A stretch of DNA of 64,000 nt from an uncultured Pseudomonadota bacterium (GCA_903919315.1 CAIXHP010000026.1:10428-74427), one strand, 5' to 3'; positions 15,507 through 64,000 are shown, counted from the stretch's first letter. Notes: generated by a model not told the origin, from the letters alone. Numbers and translations are program-made.

Positions 15507-16009
15507 TTTTATCCTTCCCGCCGTGTCGTCGCGATGGGCCTGAATGGGGAACCCTGCGCGCCAGAACCGGCAAATTCGTTGACAATCAACCTATTACGTC
15601 CGGCCGTAACCCTGAGGGGGTCGCGCCAGTCTTCGCGCTGCCTGTCGAGCTGTTCCGGGTGATGATCACCCCATAGCCTGCACGGTGCGCGTCTGTGTTC
15701 GGTATGGCGAAAGCCCTTTAACCTTTCGGCTGAGGCCCCGCCGTAGCCGGGCGCTCAGAGACTTTACGTCTTCGAACACGAGCGGATCATAACCGTAAAC
15801 AGTCCTCTAAGACAACCCGATATTCACGAGCCCCACAAAATAGGTAAGAAGACCACCGCCTTTGAAACAAACTCTTGCCTATTATCAGATGGTTAGCGGC
15901 CAGAGCCCTATGCCCGCCCCACATGTTGAGCCATGACGGAATCATCCGCTCCACCCGCAGAGGCGGGAATCCGATTGCCCTTCAGACGGTTAACGCGAGT
16001 CTGCCGCTC
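15507..16009 (-). promoter_or_regulatory. rne promoter and long 5' leader (about 500 nt untranslated)
   Basis: Large non-coding gap between the rne start and the upstream convergent ADH stop. Long structured rne leaders are established in other bacteria. Not analysed further. Confidence 0.4.
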
Positions 16010-32844: not shown

Positions 32845-33080
32845 CAGGCCTCGCGATACTATGTCGCTCTTTTCGTGCGGCTGATGTATAGTCAGCGCCG
32901 TATAATCTAATCATAACGAAGAGAGATAATGGGATGCCCGCCTACGCTGGCATGCTGGGATTTGTGTTTGAATTCAATTCACCATCGGCACCCCCGCATA
33001 AGCGCGGATCTCATTTTTTAAATCATTTTATCCAACTTGGGCTATAGTTTTTGCTACAAGCTTCACGAAACGGGTTTTTT

Positions 33081-53600: not shown

Positions 53601-53826
53601 GAGCGTGTTACCTTTTAATCGATAGGTTCAAAAAAATTCAGCCATGTGGGGGAAAAGTGCGTCCGTTCCTGCCTAGGCAGGAATAATAAGAATCCCAATA
53701 ATCGCAGCCCAAACACGACCCGCCGAGAAATCGGCTGTGGCTGTCGTGTTCAAGGGAAGGGCTTTGCTCATGAAGTCAATCTATCACGCCGAAACGCGAT
53801 GTAAAGCCCACCGCCAATAAAAAAAA

Positions 53827-53968
53827 CGTCATTCCGGCCCTGAGCCGGAATCCATCGGCGAGCGATAGCGAGCGCGTGAGTCTGCAACGCCTAGAATTCC
53901 CATGCGGTTTTGACTCTCATGCCGCGCGGACGCGCGGCGGCGGATTCCGGCTCAGGGCCGGAATGACG
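53827..53968. repeat. Paired-hairpin palindromic element (MITE/REP-like): two identical 27-nt hairpin arms in inverted orientation (CGTCATTCCGGCCCTGAGCCGGAATCC) flank about 88 bp that contain a further GC hairpin
   Basis: Exact 27/27 inverted repeat read from the sequence. The internal GAGCGATAGCGAGCG block is shared with the element at 56641-56741. Confidence 0.7.
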
Positions 53969-54009
53969 CAGGCGTTGACATGGCGGTTAACCATACCAGC
54001 CCCTGAATC

Positions 54010-55536
54010 TCAATACTTCGCGCCCAATTGGCTGACCAGCGTTTCCAGAGCCGTTACGATCCCCTGCCGATAGACCTGCACACCGTCGCCCCCGCTGGCG
54101 GCGGAGGATGTGCTGGTCGACGTTACGGTCTTGCCGCCGAGAAGCTTCTCCAGATCGGGACGGAAGCGCCACGTTGTGCCCTGCGCCGCATCCTCCAGCT
54201 CAATCCCCTGCGCTTTGAGATCGTTGCGGATCAGGTCGGCATCGGCGAAATTCTTGGCCTTACGCGCCTTGTGCCGCAGTTCGATGGACGTGGCAATCAG
54301 CCCCTCCGCAGCGGTTCCGCGTAGCAAGCCTTTCATCCATGCGTCGCGGTCTTGCTGCAACAGCCCCAGCGCTGCTCCGGCGGCTATCAGTTGCCCCTTG
54401 AGCGTCGCTTGCTCAGCGGGAGTCGCGGCGCGGCTCAAGGCGTTCGCCAGTTCGTGCATATGCTCGATCGCCATCGGCGTGTTGAGATCGTCAAGCAATG
54501 CGGCATCAAGAGCGGGCGAGGGAGTCTCGCTGTCGGCAGGCTCGACCTCCGCCGCAAACAAAGCCCCATACCACTTGTCCAAAACGGCCCGTGCGTCAGA
54601 GAGCGCCTTCAGCGTGAAGTCCAACGGCTGGCGATACTGCGAGGCCAACAGGGCCAGACGCAGAGCCTCGCCCGGAGCGCCCACCAACAGTTCGCGCACG
54701 GTAAAGAAGTTGCCCAGCGACTTTGACATCTTCTCGCCGTTCACCATCAAAAAGCCGTTGTGCATCCAATATTGCGCCAACGGCGCGCCGTCATGGGCGC
54801 AGGTGCTTTGCGCGATTTCGTTCTCGTGGTGCGGAAAAATCAGATCCAACCCACCGCCGTGAATGTCGAAGGTGACTCCGAGATGCTGCCGCGCCATCGC
54901 CGAGCATTCGATATGCCAACCGGGCCGCCCGCGACCCCATGGGCTTTCCCACCCTTGTTCGTCCGCTGCGCTGGGCTTCCACAGCACGAAATCCGCCGAG
55001 TCTTTCTTGTAGGGCGCGACTTCGACCCGCGCTCCGGCGATCAACTCGTCCCGCGTCCTCCGCGACAAAGCGCCATAGTTCGGCATCGAGGTGACATCGA
55101 ACAGCACATGGCCTTCCGCCACATAGGCATGCCCTTTGTCCAACAGCTCCTGCGTCAACGCGATCATCGGCGCAATGTACGCCGTGGCACGAGGCTCAAT
55201 ATCGGGGGGCAGGGCATTCAACGCCGCCATATCGTCATGAAAAGCCTTCGTGGTTCCGGTGGTGATGACATCAATGGCCACGCCGCTTTCTTTAGCCCGC
55301 GCCATAATCTTGTCGTCCACATCGGTGATGTTCCGCACATAGGTCACGCGCGGGTAGAGCCGCTTCAACAACCGGTAAAGCAAATCAAAGACCACCACAG
55401 GCCGCGCGTTGCCGAGATGCGCGAAATCGTAAACCGTAGGGCCGCACACATACATACGAACATTCGAAGGATCGAGCGGCTTGAACTTTTCCTTCGTGCG
55501 CGAAAGAGTATTGTGAATATGAAGCGTGTCGGCCAT
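54010..55536 (-). CDS. cysS: Cysteine--tRNA ligase
   Basis: YVCGPTVYDFAHLGNARP (HIGH), KMSKS, 508 aa. Confidence 0.95.
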   Translation of the reverse strand: MADTLHIHNTLSRTKEKFKPLDPSNVRMYVCGPTVYDFAHLGNARPVVVFDLLYRLLKRLYPRVTYVRNITDVDDKIMARAKESGVAIDVITTGTTKAFHDDMAALNALPPDIEPRATAYIAPMIALTQELLDKGHAYVAEGHVLFDVTSMPNYGALSRRTRDELIAGARVEVAPYKKDSADFVLWKPSAADEQGWESPWGRGRPGWHIECSAMARQHLGVTFDIHGGGLDLIFPHHENEIAQSTCAHDGAPLAQYWMHNGFLMVNGEKMSKSLGNFFTVRELLVGAPGEALRLALLASQYRQPLDFTLKALSDARAVLDKWYGALFAAEVEPADSETPSPALDAALLDDLNTPMAIEHMHELANALSRAATPAEQATLKGQLIAAGAALGLLQQDRDAWMKGLLRGTAAEGLIATSIELRHKARKAKNFADADLIRNDLKAQGIELEDAAQGTTWRFRPDLEKLLGGKTVTSTSTSSAASGGDGVQVYRQGIVTALETLVSQLGAKY

Positions 55537-55736
55537 CGGTCAATCAACCTCAAATGTGCGGCAAGCCCCAGTCCCCCTATGGGAAAAAGGCCGTCTTATA
55601 AAGACACTTTGCCATGCTTTTCTTCGCCTGAAAATCCCTGAGATGGCCGTATTTGCGCGATCATGGGCTTCTTGTGGGAATTGCGTTTATTGCCTACACT
55701 GTCCGGTGAACAATTCCTTTGGAAAATGGTGGCGCT

Positions 55737-56618
55737 ATGAACACTTTGACGCGGTGCGGTCTGGTTGTTGCGGGCATGGCGGTGTTGTACGTCGTCGCGG
55801 GCCAGTTTATGGGGTCGATCAACGACGACCTCGACTTTACGGCGGAACCGCCGCAGGGCGGCAGTTACGCGGTCGCGATGGCGGCCTCCCTTATGGAGCG
55901 TGAACTGGACTCCGGCTGGCACCCCAGCGATGTCGTCAACCCGGCCCGCATGCGCGTTGATGTCCCGGCTTTCCAGTTGGGCATCAAACGTGTGCTGGAA
56001 CGCTTCACGATGGGCGCGGTTGACCATCTGGCCCGCAGCGGCGGCGCAAGTTCAATGGATCAGGACTTGCTGGCGGCACGGAGCCACATCCAGTTTACCC
56101 CACGCTCCTTTTCGATGTTCCCCTCCAACAGCAGCGTGAGCAACTACAGGCTCGCCGTTGAAGACCTGCGCAAATACAACGACCGGCTCGCCCAAGGGCA
56201 GGCCACCTTCGACCAACGCATCGACAATCTGGCGCATGTTTTGAGCGGCACGGTCAGCGATCTCGGCGATCAAACCTCGGAACTGGATCAAAAGGCGCAA
56301 AACGGAGCGCTCATCAGCTTTGACGTGCGCCGCTCGTATTACTACACCGAAGGCATGCTGTACGGCGGCTGCATGATTTTGAAGGCGTTGGGCAAGGACT
56401 TTAAGTCCGTGCTGGCGGCGCAATCGGCGACCAATATGTACGATCAAGCTGTCGCCACAACGTGCGGCGCGGCAACCGGAGCGCCCCTTTTGGTCATCAA
56501 CGGTGGCCGCCACGGGCTCCTGCCCAGTCATCCCTACACGCTGGCCGGTGAAGTCGCCCTCGTCCGCGCCCGCTGGCAAAGCGTCCTCGACGCCGAACTG
56601 GGTAGCCAAAAACCTTGA
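55737..56618 (+). CDS. Membrane-anchored hypothetical protein (DUF2333-like)
   Basis: N-terminal TM helix (LVVAGMAVLYVVAG), about 290 aa, no catalytic motif. Family assignment from memory, uncertain. Confidence 0.5.
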   Translation: MNTLTRCGLVVAGMAVLYVVAGQFMGSINDDLDFTAEPPQGGSYAVAMAASLMERELDSGWHPSDVVNPARMRVDVPAFQLGIKRVLERFTMGAVDHLARSGGASSMDQDLLAARSHIQFTPRSFSMFPSNSSVSNYRLAVEDLRKYNDRLAQGQATFDQRIDNLAHVLSGTVSDLGDQTSELDQKAQNGALISFDVRRSYYYTEGMLYGGCMILKALGKDFKSVLAAQSATNMYDQAVATTCGAATGAPLLVINGGRHGLLPSHPYTLAGEVALVRARWQSVLDAELGSQKP

Positions 56619-56640
56619 TGCGAAGCGGTTGTTTTTTTGT

Positions 56641-56741
56641 GTCATCCTCGCGAAAGCGGATCCAGAGTGAGCGATAGCGAACGTATGACTCTTAAGGCTC
56701 GCGGACGCTCGCCGCTGGATTCCCGCTTTCGCGGGAATGAC
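56641..56741. repeat. Second member of the paired-hairpin repeat family (left arm degenerate; right arm perfect ATTCCCGC tttc GCGGGAAT hairpin)
   Basis: Arms GTCATCCTCGCGAAAGCGGATCCAG / CTGGATTCCCGCTTTCGCGGGAATGAC. Shared internal GAGCGATAGCGA block. Sits between convergent gene ends. Confidence 0.6.
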
Positions 56742-56788
56742 ACAGGCTTGAATGTTTTGGTGTAGTCGCAAGGAGCTTGAGGCGAACC

Positions 56789-57640
56789 CTACCTAAAAGC
56801 GGGCGCAACCCGCCGATACGAACCCGGCTGCTTCTCATGCGCCGCAATTGCCCGTTCGATAAACCCATTGTTGTGCAAATTTCGGATATCGTTGTTCAGC
56901 ATATCCGCCAACCGGTTCTCTCCTTGTTTTATCATAAAGGCATTGGTTAGGACGCGAACAGGTTGATCGGGTGTCACATTCTGCATCGCGCGAGGATTGT
57001 GACGTTCAAACTCAAAAGCCTGCGCCGCCTCGGTAAAGGTCACGTCAGCCTTGCCGACTTTGACGTTCAGCAGCAACTGCGAAAAGTCGGTAAGGTCCGG
57101 CACGGAAAAGGTCTTTGCCAAGGGATAATCTTCGCTGGCGATCCGCGCCGCAAGACCACCATCAAGCGTCGCAATGGTAATCGAAGGCGAATTGATCGCC
57201 GCAAGATTGCCATTAAAACGATTGTCGCCCGTGCGCGCATAAACATTCATCGCTGTATAATACACAGGTGTCGTAAACAGGGCCACGGTGCCACGCAACG
57301 AATCCGTCCAAACGCTCGTACACATCAGGTCGTAACGTCCTGTGTTTAAACCTTCAATCATCGAAGCCGGGCCGACCTCCTCCTTCCACTCGACATTCAG
57401 CCCCAAATCTTTGGCCAAACGCGTGATAATATCATAGGAAATGCCGGAAAAAGCCCCCGTGTTGACATCTTTGATCAAGCTGGGCGGATAAACGATATAC
57501 CCGCAACGAAGCGTCTTCGTTTCCATAATCCTGTCGAAAACAGAGGTGGAAACATCTGGTGTTTTTTTTGCCGACCCTGATACCGGATCACATCCGGATA
57601 AAACAATCACGGCCAGAGCGAGCAGGGCGGTCAAACGCAT
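56789..57640 (-). CDS. Periplasmic solute-binding protein, family 3 (paralog 2). Lipoprotein-type signal (LSGC).
   Basis: LRCGYIVYPPS..D.NTGAFSGISYDI..LGLNVEWKEE..GRYDLMCTSVW..PVYYTAMNVYAR. Paralogous to 8716-9594. Confidence 0.75.
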   Translation of the reverse strand: MRLTALLALAVIVLSGCDPVSGSAKKTPDVSTSVFDRIMETKTLRCGYIVYPPSLIKDVNTGAFSGISYDIITRLAKDLGLNVEWKEEVGPASMIEGLNTGRYDLMCTSVWTDSLRGTVALFTTPVYYTAMNVYARTGDNRFNGNLAAINSPSITIATLDGGLAARIASEDYPLAKTFSVPDLTDFSQLLLNVKVGKADVTFTEAAQAFEFERHNPRAMQNVTPDQPVRVLTNAFMIKQGENRLADMLNNDIRNLHNNGFIERAIAAHEKQPGSYRRVAPAFR

Positions 57641-57663
57641 GATTGTCTCCCTTTGGAAGAAGA

Positions 57664-58524
57664 TTATTCGCGGAAACTCGGCGCAGGAACAAAATAGCCT
57701 GTATCGTACTTCTTGCGAATTTTCTCCATAACGCCATTGTCGATAAGAACCTGCAAACCCGCGTTCATCATGGCCATAAATTGCGGGTCGCTTGGCGGAA
57801 GCGCTAAAATGTGCGGCAGTATTCGCAGAGGCCGCACGCCAGAAACGGCCCTTAGCTTGCCGGGATTAGCCGCCATGAACGGCTTAATCTCATCCGGATC
57901 CATGGTGGCAACATCAGCTTTTTTTGTAATCACGGTCATGAGGTATTCCGCGCTTTGCACCAGTTGCGGCAAAGCGGTAATTTTTGACGAAGGAAACTGT
58001 TCGGCAACCAACGGGCTTAAAGGAGCCCCATCAATGACAACGAACGTCACATCCGGTTGGTTAAGGCGTTCGGGATTGCCATCAAAGCGGTTGTCATCGG
58101 CTCGCACATAAAGTTGAGGTGCGCTGTAAAAAATCGGGCGGCTGAGCAACAAGTTTTTCAACTTGGGCGCATCGATCCAAGCAGACGTGCACACAGCGTC
58201 ATAGCGATTGGTCTTGAATCCCTCGCCGATATTCCCCCAGCCAATTTCCTCAACCCAATCAATCTTGAGATCAAGAACTTTTCCGAGTTCCATCATGATG
58301 TCGTAGTTCAAGCCCGTAGGCTGGGTGTTCCCGTCCTTCAACTCAGTGTAATAATAAGGTTTCCAATTGACATAACCGCAACGCAGAACGCCGCTCCGAA
58401 CGACATTGTCGCGCACGGAAAGGCGCTCGACGGAGGGCGCATCAGTCTTCCCAAATCGGGCAAAAATCAATCCGACCAGAACGCCCGCGATGAGGCAGGT
58501 CAGCACCAAAGGAAGTTTTTTCAT
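57664..58524 (-). CDS. Periplasmic solute-binding protein, family 3 (paralog 3). ORF extends to 58563; MKKLPLVL start preferred.
   Basis: LRCGYVNWKPY..GLNYDI..LDLKIDWVEE..NRYDAVCTSAW..PIFYSAPQLYVRADDNRF. Tandem with paralog 2. Confidence 0.75.
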   Translation of the reverse strand: MKKLPLVLTCLIAGVLVGLIFARFGKTDAPSVERLSVRDNVVRSGVLRCGYVNWKPYYYTELKDGNTQPTGLNYDIMMELGKVLDLKIDWVEEIGWGNIGEGFKTNRYDAVCTSAWIDAPKLKNLLLSRPIFYSAPQLYVRADDNRFDGNPERLNQPDVTFVVIDGAPLSPLVAEQFPSSKITALPQLVQSAEYLMTVITKKADVATMDPDEIKPFMAANPGKLRAVSGVRPLRILPHILALPPSDPQFMAMMNAGLQVLIDNGVMEKIRKKYDTGYFVPAPSFRE

Positions 58525-58671
58525 GGAGGTCTCCACAAAGCCGAAACGCTTTTCCGGAGCCATCGTACTAGCGTGGGCATGGTACCCACAAGCGGTTATT
58601 CCCGCGCTCCGCCCAAGAAAAAAGGCGGAGGGTTTCCCCTCCGCCTTTGTTCCTGCAACGCCTGACGGCGC

Positions 58672-59286
58672 TTAGCGCGAATAGTATTCGATGACGAGGT
58701 TCGGTTCCATCTGGACAGGGTAGGGAACGTCGCCCATCGCCGGAGCGCGGACGAAGGTGCCCTTCATTTCCTTGTGGTCGACCTGCACATAGTCCGGCAC
58801 GTCGCGCTCGGCCAATTCGATGGCGGCGAGAACGGGGACGAACTGCTTGGCCTTGCCGCGCACTTCAATGACGTCGCCGTCCTTGACCTGATACGAAGCG
58901 ATGTTGACCTTTTTGTTGTTGACCAGAATGTGGCCGTGGCTGACCAACTGCCGCGCGGCAAAAACCGTCGCGACGAATTTCATGCGATAGACCACCGCGT
59001 CGAGGCGGCGTTCCAAAAGTTGGATCAGGTTCTCGCCGCTGTCGCCCTTGCGACGGAAGGCTTCTTCGTAATAGCGCAGGAACTGGCGTTCGCCGACGTT
59101 GCCGTAGTAGCAGCGCAGGCGTTGCTTCGCGAGCAACTGCACGCCAAAGTCCGAAGGCTTGTGGCGGCGCTGGCCATGCTGGCCGGGGCGGTAATCGCGC
59201 TTGTTGAGGGGGCTCTTGGGGCGGCCCCAGAGGTTCACGCCCAAACGGCGGTCGATTTTATGCTTGGATTGCAAACGTTTCGTCAT
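58672..59286 (-). CDS. rpsD: 30S ribosomal protein S4
   Basis: KRLG..LWGR..S4 domain, 204 aa. Confidence 0.95.
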
Positions 59287-59574
59287 AGCTCAGTGTCCTT
59301 CTTTTTCTATGACCGCCTTTAAGGCAGCCTTTGTTGTCCCGATAGTTCATCCTCGACGCCTTCGCGACAGGTGACGGGTACAGCCCCTTTCGGGCCGACC
59401 GCTTTCTCAGGAATAACGGGCTTATAGCGACTGCAAGCGGCTGCTGTCAAACAATGGATCGGCGTTTGTCCGCCCTATCCGTCACGTTTGTGAAGGCGGG
59501 TGTCTTGCCGCCCCACCTATCATATTGATTGTGCTATATCTTTCTTGTTCTGGGGTAACAAAAAGAAACCAAAC

Positions 59575-59656
59575 GGGATCCCCGCCTTCGCGGGGATGAC
59601 GATAGAGGGTTGAATTCAAACAAAAATATCGTCATGCCCGCGAAGGCGGGCATCCC
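59575..59656. repeat. Third member of the paired-hairpin repeat family (two 29-nt arms, each a perfect 8-bp hairpin, carrying compensatory substitutions)
   Basis: GGGATCCCCGCCTTCGCGGGGATGACGAT ... ATCGTCATGCCCGCGAAGGCGGGCATCCC. Lies in the rpsD / scpA divergent intergenic region. Confidence 0.65.
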
Positions 59657-59770
59657 ATTTTTTGATCACATTATCCTACACTCGCGTTAAGCTGCCTCGG
59701 CGGGACGATTCGGGCGATGGCCGGAACGTTTGCTAACCCTTGTCGCGTATAAGGATATTTCCGGAAAGCC

Positions 59771-63726: not shown

Positions 63727-64000
63727 CTATTCCTCCACATAATCCAAGTCACGCGCATAAGTTTCCGGCATGTACCACAAAGCGACCGCCGCTAACGCAA
63801 AGCAGAGGAGGCCGACGATCTGGGCGCTCACAAGAAACCCATACTCAGGCTTAAAAAACACGATCAGCAAATTGATGGGTATGATCGAGGAGCGGATGAA
63901 GTTCTGAACCGTCGCCGTGGCCGTAGCCCTCAGATTTGTGCCAAACATCTCCGCCGTCGTGGTCACGAGGATACCCCAATAGCCGATGAGGAAGCCTCCG
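63727..64000 (-). CDS. C-terminal part of a transporter (MFS-like). The gene continues beyond the window end.
   Basis: Hydrophobic TM-rich C-terminus ending ...YMPETYARDLDYVEE. The reading frame is open to position 64000. Confidence 0.4.
   Translation of the reverse strand, partial: GGFLIGYWGILVTTTAEMFGTNLRATATATVQNFIRSSIIPINLLIVFFKPEYGFLVSAQIVGLLCFALAAVALWYMPETYARDLDYVEE

Follow-up and report, generated by a model that had tools for sequence, protein, structure and literature searches.

Paired-hairpin elements in an uncultured bacterium as probable dimers of CGTC-tagged palindromic repeats

What kind of element places three pairs of hairpins between the genes of an uncultured bacterium within less than 6 kb? 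The DNA concerned is a stretch of 64,000 nucleotides from an uncultured Pseudomonadota bacterium (GCA_903919315.1 CAIXHP010000026.1:10428-74427), which we call the window and number 5' to 3' from its first letter. A preliminary description had picked out three intergenic sites in it, elements A (53827-53968), B (56640-56742) and C (59575-59656), as paired inverted hairpins resembling either a miniature inverted-repeat transposable element (MITE) or a repetitive extragenic palindrome (REP). The three sites are real, and the sequences quoted for them are found at their coordinates; only the start of element B had been placed 1 nt too late.

Comparison of the sequences with published repeats makes it likely that the elements are dimers of CGTC-tagged REPs. 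These are the dRS3 or Neisseria Transformation Sequence (NTS) units of Neisseria, the Ssn-related motifs (SRM) more generally and RPE-4 and RPE-6 in Rickettsia, and they would be cut by an Ssn-type nuclease encoded elsewhere in the genome. The elements are an ordinary new occurrence of a family that has been known as dRS3 since 2000 and was catalogued as CGTC REPs in 2013; its partner enzyme, Ssn, followed in 2025. They are no new kind of element. The preliminary description had reckoned with the sites resolving as parts of a known insertion sequence (IS) or MITE. In effect, they do resolve as a known element, a REP family, but this family is neither an IS nor a MITE.

Tagged hairpin units and their published relatives

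The pair had been taken as the repeat. The recurring unit is instead a single asymmetric tagged hairpin of 25-28 nt, with a 5' tag YGTC, an 8-bp stem that starts with AT, a loop of 4-5 nt and a tail CC(A/G/C). CGTC-tagged REPs have been defined by an unpaired CGTC or TGTC (or CCTC) tag, a stem of 8-9 bp starting with AT and a CCA tail (Di Nocera, De Gregorio and Rocco, BMC Genomics 2013, PMC3733652). The loop is 4 nt long in family 1 and 5 nt long in families 2-4. The same catalogue equates CGTC REPs with dRS3 of Neisseria and RPE-4 and RPE-6 of Rickettsia, and knew of no dedicated transposase in 2013. The units of the window agree with the published definition and are multi-copy in nature, so the view of the sites as a REP-like repeat family stands.

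Element A is a head-to-head (HH) homodimer with its tags outside. Its left unit (53827-53854, plus strand) has a CGTC tag, a stem ATTCCGGC/GCCGGAAT, a 5-nt loop CCTGA and a CCA tail, and resembles CGTC-2 and CGTC-3. The right unit (53941-53968, minus strand) repeats this sequence except for its tail, CCG. The two units lie in an inverted repeat (I1) with 38-nt arms that are 89% complementary. They are separated by an 86-nt spacer (53855-53940), which contains a GAGCGATAGCGAGCG block and an inner stem-loop, GCCGCGCGGACGCGCGGC, at 53921-53938.

Element B is also an HH dimer with its tags outside. The right unit (56716-56742, minus strand) reads TGTC-ATTCCCGC-GAAA-GCGGGAAT-CCA and holds a perfect ATTCCCGCTTTCGCGGGAAT at 56719-56738. 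The left unit (56640-56664, plus strand) is decayed. A TGTC tag is followed by ATCCTCGC-GAAA-GCGG--AT and a CCA tail, with one stem mismatch and a 2-nt deletion. The 51-nt spacer (56665-56715) is related to that of element A (GAGCGATAGCGAACG ... CGCGGACGC; direct-repeat families D1 and D2, alignment A3).

Element C differs from both. It is a tail-to-tail (TT) heterodimer with its tags inside, so the single architecture ascribed to all three sites does not hold. The left unit (59575-59601, minus strand) is CGTC-ATCCCCGC-GAAG-GCGGGGAT-CCC and the right unit (59630-59656, plus strand) is CGTC-ATGCCCGC-GAAG-GCGGGCAT-CCC, with a spacer of 28 nt (59602-59629) between them. As had been noted before, the units carry compensatory changes. 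They differ at one stem pair (ATCCCCGC versus ATGCCCGC), and each change is compensated within its own unit.

Taken feature by feature, the likeness to CGTC-1 to CGTC-3 REPs is close. All units of A and C carry the tag CGTC, and those of B carry TGTC. The 8-bp stems are ATTCCGGC, ATTCCCGC, ATCCCCGC and ATGCCCGC, the left unit of B being decayed, and the loops are GAAA or GAAG (4 nt; B and C) and CCTGA (5 nt; A). The tail is CCA in the left unit of A and both units of B, CCG in the right unit of A and CCC in both units of C; of 334 distinct foreign units, 93% have an A after ATCC. In the catalogue, HH dimers predominate; their spacers, 20-100 bp long, are conserved and in many cases structured. 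TT dimers are rare and head-to-tail (HT) dimers are negligible. The window has two HH dimers with spacers of 86 and 51 nt and one TT dimer with a spacer of 28 nt. CGTC REPs are commonest in Alphaproteobacteria, Micavibrio included, and are sited near the 3' ends of open reading frames (ORFs); the window agrees in class, and elements A and B agree in placement. Nothing structural sets the elements apart from CGTC REPs. The differences lie in the host, an undescribed metagenome-assembled genome (MAG), and in the CCC tails of element C, where the catalogue has CCA.

We gathered foreign units by two pattern scans, which yielded at least 120 stretches each. The first covered viral contigs in IMG/VR; the second covered GTDB genomes and was restricted to the rarer variant with a 5-nt loop. 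Across 245 loci there are 501 units, and dimers within 200 nt comprise 96 HH, 53 HT and 19 TT. The dominance of HH and the rarity of TT are as catalogued in 2013, but the 53 HT dimers disagree with the catalogue's negligible HT class. Units are common in the viral contigs. The GTDB stretches with 5-nt-loop units include some from Dehalococcoidia, Agrobacterium/Rhizobium, Silvimonas, Sphingobium, Nitrospinota, Planctomycetota, Bacteroidota, Firmicutes and candidate phyla. Rfam has no family for these elements and, at its gathering threshold, finds only a tRNA in the window.

We built a covariance model, R1, from 55 distinct aligned foreign units, all from unrelated contigs, and searched the whole window with filters off. 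Exactly six full-length significant matches were obtained, with E values from 1.3e-11 to 1.3e-5, and the next full-length match has E = 0.098. The six are the units described above: 53824-53858 on the plus strand (A left, 36.3 bits, E = 2.1e-8), 53937-53971 on the minus strand (A right, E = 5.2e-8), 56637-56668 on the plus strand (B left, 26.9 bits, E = 1.3e-5, two base pairs broken), 56712-56745 on the minus strand (B right, 47.1 bits, E = 1.3e-11), 59571-59604 on the minus strand (C left, E = 9.5e-11) and 59627-59660 on the plus strand (C right, E = 5.8e-9). The whole elements fold far better than shuffled sequences, with z = -6.7 to -8.7 on both strands and none of 200 shuffles equally good. 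Since a model made from foreign units recovers the six units and the whole elements outfold their shuffles, the units are not due to chance.

The hairpin of the unit is under selection, as double compensatory changes in the foreign units and the locally perfect hairpins of element C indicate. At two stem positions that the search pattern left free, 21 and 24 of the 55 foreign units carry double compensatory changes, with one unpaired cell at each position. Stem cells are paired in 99.5% of cases in these units. Shuffles reach 89%, and sliding the partners gives no more than 53%. In element C, one stem pair is C:G in one unit and G:C in the other. The local hairpins are thus perfect, whereas pairing from unit to unit would leave two mismatches.

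The 28-nt NTS, CGTCATTCCCGCGMAVGCGGGAATCYRG, contains the older dRS3 motif ATTCCC-N8-GGGAAT and has been generalised to the SRM (Chenal et al., Nat Commun 2025, PMC11893778). The NTS is found with one mismatch at 56715-56742 on the minus strand, that is, in the right unit of element B, the sole unit of the window at one mismatch or fewer. The SRM expression matches this unit and the left unit of element C (59574-59601, minus strand), where 0.34 matches per shuffle are expected. The GTC ahead of the stem and the C behind it, the positions reported as most critical for cleavage and binding by SsnA (PMC11893778), are kept in all six units. Unit sequence, polarity, the conserved GTC and C and local clustering are shared with the NTS/SRM system. 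On the other side, the host has no natural link to transformation of the Neisseria type, and no variant of the DNA uptake sequence (DUS) occurs in the 64-kb window.

The exact ATTCCC-N8-GGGAAT at 56719-56738 and the inverted units around short repeated spacers also recall dRS3 and the Neisseria intergenic mosaic elements (NIME) themselves. We rejected membership of that group. Five of the six units depart from the strict pattern (ATTCCG, ATCCCC, ATGCCC, ATCCTC), which leaves a single fitting unit. There are no large mosaic arrays and no DUS variant in the window, and the proteins are alphaproteobacterial.

In Neisseria, dRS3 is the integration target of filamentous prophages. Chenal et al. cite it as a target of a phage recombinase (PMC11893778). 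The elements could on this precedent be attachment or target sites of a site-specific recombinase, and the exact dRS3 unit in element B and the frequency of units in IMG/VR viral contigs would fit such a role. No phage, integrase or IS110-type gene adjoins the elements in the gene-called stretches (44.7-64 kb), however, and the role would leave the paired organisation and the link with ssn genes described below unexplained. As an account of the elements we consider it very improbable; as an exploitation of existing repeats it would be compatible with dimers of CGTC-tagged REPs.

The spacers add a further connection. The internal block that had been reported as common to A and B, GAGCGATAGCGA(G/A)CG, is present, in a 24-nt stretch of 83% identity. 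The arm-proximal part of both spacers is GCGCGTC-N-GCGCGGC followed by AGAGTC, and is homologous to the first spacer stem-loop of the HH dimers of Agrobacterium and Rhizobium (alignment A3), which have been described as CGTC-3 with two spacer stem-loops (Di Nocera 2013, PMC3733652). The latter also have units with a 5-nt loop (CGTCATTCCGGCCTTGAGCCGGAATCC there, CCTGA in element A). In their remaining half, the spacers are unrelated, with AGCCCAAGGACTTGGGCT in Rhizobiaceae and GAGCGATAGCGAGCG in the window, and element A is about 30 nt longer.

Outside the three elements, the window holds one further trace of the family. At 32928-33016, 89 nt align without gaps to element C at 79% identity. Both hairpins are eroded, but the TTGAATTCAA at the centre of the element C spacer and the right flank CATTTTTT are retained. 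The R1 match is marginal (E = 0.13), and the fold is on par with shuffles (z = -0.66). This is a fossil of the TT dimer of element C, which the preliminary description had missed. A solo arm that it had proposed at 15951-15972 was not borne out. R1 gives E = 1.3 there, with the inner stem alone matched; the site is a plain CCCGC/GCGGG hairpin, 45 nt past the stop of an ADH-like ORF and upstream of rne.

All six significant units of the window are confined to 5.9 kb (53.8-59.7 kb), with the fossil at 32.9 kb as the sole further trace. Local clustering has been reported for the NTS in Neisseria (Chenal 2025, PMC11893778).

Gene contexts, host and the transcript-level alternative

The gene contexts of the three sites are as first given. 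Element A lies 41 nt past the stop of cysS and 226 nt ahead of the start of cimA, both on the minus strand. Element B is framed by the stop codons of two convergent genes, a DUF2333 gene and one for a solute-binding protein, and rpsD and scpA diverge on either side of element C. Elements A and B are 19-44 nt away from ORF 3' ends.

These positions raise the question of whether the hairpins evolved in place for the sake of the neighbouring transcripts, as intrinsic terminators, stabilisers of 3' ends or RNase processing sites. Element A speaks for such a role. On the minus strand, its long hairpin is followed by a T8 run (53819-53826, minus strand), 41 nt past the cysS stop. The terminator scan places a stem at 53851-53831 (minus strand) and then the tail GACGTTTTTT; the distance from this local stem to the T8 is 4 nt, and the gap is 0 if the whole dimer is taken as one hairpin. 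Element B sits between two convergent 3' ends, T-rich runs stand behind both units of element C, and many REPs are transcribed, as Di Nocera et al. argue (PMC3733652).

The other sites do not bear this out. Element B has no T-run behind its hairpin on either strand and does not score in the scan. The units of element C score, but they lie upstream of genes, between divergent starts where there is nothing to terminate. The region as a whole has 7 terminator-like sites, compared with 8.9 expected from shuffles. Many phyla share the unit sequence, its non-palindromic tag and tail included, which is unexpected of terminators that evolved locally. We therefore think it improbable that the elements arose in this way. 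The terminator or RNA-processing role suggested in the preliminary description is at best a secondary one. Element A alone, on the cysS strand, is terminator-like and in a sensible place. Element C sits in a divergent promoter region, and the tag and the tail are conserved, non-palindromic and of no evident need to a terminator hairpin. An effect on transcripts is compatible with dimers of CGTC-tagged REPs as a by-product.

The proteins of the window were found only in metagenome assemblies (NCBI, ENA and Logan). The best non-self match of CysS is 73% identical, and its named relatives are MAGs labelled Alphaproteobacteria or 'Bdellovibrionales'. By these protein matches, the host is an uncultured alphaproteobacterium. 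The loci of the closest cysS homologues (about 70% identity) are not syntenic, and their 20-kb surroundings hold 0-2 units. In two short-read assemblies of the organism that are independent of each other (Logan ERR4195031 and SRR8496330; loci L001 and L243), the sequence stops within a unit, in the right unit of B at window position 56724 and in the right unit of C at 59636. Such ends are typical of the collapse of multi-copy repeats, thus suggesting that the units are multi-copy in the host.

GIY-YIG genes beside the repeats

SsnA-type proteins are small single-domain GIY-YIG proteins (cd10448, about 100 aa) that bind hairpins and cut beside them, on single-stranded DNA (ssDNA) only and on the forward strand only (PMC11893778). 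For four pairs of Ssn and repeat, binding of the hairpin with the C just 3' of it and a nick a few nt 5' of the tag have been shown (PMC11893778). In Neisseria, Ssn lowers the integration of transforming DNA that bears the repeat, and ssn genes are typically flanked by repeats (PMC11893778).

The foreign loci show the same association. Among about 240 loci selected by the unit pattern, six contain a small GIY-YIG ORF, all of one protein family, and five of these ORFs are bracketed by units. The ORF of locus L101 (96 aa) matches the Pfam GIY-YIG domain (PF01541) with E = 1.7e-14. Alignment of the six proteins allowed us to fetch 33 further ssn-like loci from IMG/VR. In 11 of these, the gene has a strong forward unit no more than 100 nt upstream and a strong reverse unit no more than 100 nt downstream, with tags pointing outward as in elements A and B. 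In about nine of the 33, an extra reverse unit just outside the upstream unit creates a TT dimer like element C. In L101, the subtype pair of element C (a C:G unit beside a G:C unit, tags inside) is found on both sides of the GIY-YIG gene. NCBIfam has no model specific to ssn-like proteins. The units of the window belong to the sequence family of Ssn targets, keep its critical positions and have its dimer organisation, and this family brackets GIY-YIG genes in unrelated contigs.

As a separate observation, whole TT heterodimers often bracket the ssn-like genes (L101:5360-5920, L189:4930-5400 and, in L251-L283, about 1350-1900). In L101 and L189 they form direct repeats on the two sides of the gene. 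This layout of a TT-bracketed ssn cassette is not spelled out in the excerpts of PMC3733652 and PMC11893778 that we cite from.

A partner of this kind bears on the GTAG-type REPs and bacterial interspersed mosaic elements (BIMEs) of E. coli, Pseudomonas and Stenotrophomonas, which are maintained by a REP-associated tyrosine transposase (RAYT), an IS200/IS605-like HUH enzyme. The logic is shared: short, imperfect tagged palindromes, HH and TT dimers, and a hairpin in ssDNA that is recognised by a dedicated nuclease whose gene is flanked by the repeat. But the tags of the six window units are CGTC or TGTC and never GTAG, the gene flanked by such units encodes a GIY-YIG nuclease and not a RAYT, and in no species did the 2013 catalogue find a RAYT gene with CGTC units at its sides (Di Nocera 2013, PMC3733652). 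On these grounds, with no search of the window aimed at a RAYT itself, we give next to no credence to the elements being REPs of the GTAG type.

The same applies to classical MITEs, internally deleted IS copies that a DDE transposase moves by way of their terminal inverted repeats. With 100-140 nt, inverted termini, intergenic sites and multiple copies, the elements have the look of MITEs, and units around ssn genes show the HH polarity too. However, inspection of the flanks revealed no direct target duplication beside A, B or C, and there are no terminal repeats of the transposase type, so the MITE label of the preliminary description does not apply in its classical sense. Each supposed terminal repeat is a hairpin unit that is also found singly, in tandem and in the opposite polarity. 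The window has no ssn-like GIY-YIG gene, and nothing similar to the spacers of A and B occurs in the inner flanks of the 33 ssn cassettes. An origin of the elements by internal deletion of an ssn cassette is therefore unsupported, and we regard classical MITEs as exceedingly unlikely.

If the elements are dimers of CGTC-tagged REPs, the following mechanism can be proposed. The unit would fold into its hairpin once the DNA is single-stranded. A cognate small GIY-YIG nuclease (Ssn), which to judge from the sequence would be encoded elsewhere in the host genome, would bind the hairpin and the C directly 3' of it. It would then nick a few nt 5' of the tag, only on the strand that bears the forward unit. 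Because an inverted dimer gives each strand one forward unit, either strand should be cleavable when it is single-stranded, as in transformation, conjugation or replication. Elements A and B, as HH dimers whose structured spacer is conserved, have the organisation seen most often in the family, and element C is a TT heterodimer such as is found at the borders of ssn cassettes. The family seems to behave as a selfish or domesticated repeat, moving from genome to genome with or through ssn cassettes. When transcribed, the dimers would form very stable RNA hairpins as a side effect. Element A with its U8 probably also terminates or stabilises the cysS transcript, as a secondary function.

Several points weigh against this identification. 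There is no ssn or GIY-YIG gene in the 64 kb, as judged by a motif scan, tblastn, a profile of the six Ssn-like proteins run against ORFs of at least 50 aa and a six-frame search beside each element. Copy number and ssn content of the host are seen for the 64-kb window only. A homologue of ssnA is missing from 19% of SRM-rich genomes (Chenal 2025, PMC11893778). Ssn is not known to mobilise repeats, and a biological role of Ssn is established for Neisseria alone (PMC11893778). Only two of the six units fit the literal SRM and only one fits the NTS with at most one mismatch; the other four are recovered by R1. Finally, assemblies of the same organism from other samples are 100% identical over 8.9-12 kb across the elements spanned, and therefore give no sign of recent mobility; a shorter contig of the same organism, which stops short of the elements, differs at one base. 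With these points taken into account, we still hold dimers of CGTC-tagged REPs to be the probable identity of the elements.

A more far-reaching reading is that the dimers are not only passive targets of Ssn but footprints of a mobile element that moves as ssDNA and is driven by the GIY-YIG nuclease. The TT heterodimer, which lies directly outside the gene in five of the six ssn-like loci and in about nine more of the 33, may be the terminal module of an ssn cassette. Element C and the fossil at 32928-33016 may be solo modules, left after recombination between direct repeats had deleted ssn. The HH dimers (A and B), with a spacer part in common with Rhizobiaceae, may be a non-autonomous form copied in trans by Ssn. 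We regard the footprint reading as possible but doubtful. If it were true, Ssn would be a mobilising enzyme of a new class for the CGTC REPs, which were described in 2013 without a dedicated transposase.

Neighbouring features and significance

Some features beside the elements deserve mention. Just outside their right units, A and B have a short motif in common, CAGGCGTTGA (53969-53978) and CAGGCTTGAA (56743-56752), whereas their left flanks differ, with a run of A at element A and a run of T at element B. The motif, present in two copies, may be part of the element or reflect a preference for the insertion site. A perfect 18-nt palindrome, TTCCTGCCTAGGCAGGAA (53666-53683), lies 66-83 nt upstream of the cimA start, with a T-rich stretch behind it on the gene strand, and could serve as an operator or leader element. 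Lacking a CGTC tag, it falls outside the repeat family (R1 E = 1.2). Just downstream of rpsD, at 58621-58648 on the minus strand, there is a strong canonical intrinsic terminator with a 12-bp stem, 8 GC pairs and a T-run, which is also unrelated to the family and offers a useful contrast.

The window CysS has a C-terminal extension of about 51 aa (FRPDLEKLLGGKTVTSTSTSSAASGG...; 54010-54165, minus strand), which reaches to within 41 nt of element A. Its homologues end two residues past TTWR and have no extension. The CysS_C domain of the relatives is missing from the precomputed Pfam list for the window CysS. Just beyond the window end, a contig (L242:25-263) shows a second gene for an MFS transporter. 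Its 3' end has 82% identity with that of the MFS-transporter gene in the window (63727-63965), and the two look like tandem paralogues.

When read in different frames, the units yield recurring peptides such as SFPRRRES, IPAQAGIQ, DSRLRGND and MPAYAGMT, as seen in IMG/VR loci L024, L090, L095, L052 and L076. These peptides extend or create spurious small ORFs and are thus a likely source of false 'hypothetical proteins'.

For annotation, the sites are best labelled CGTC-REP/SRM dimers and not a new MITE family, and small ORFs made of units should not be taken as genes. The elements also account for the breaks of short-read assemblies at these points. For the organism itself, the elements suggest that the host is a probable carrier of an Ssn-type single-strand nuclease system, whose enzymes are of biotechnological interest.

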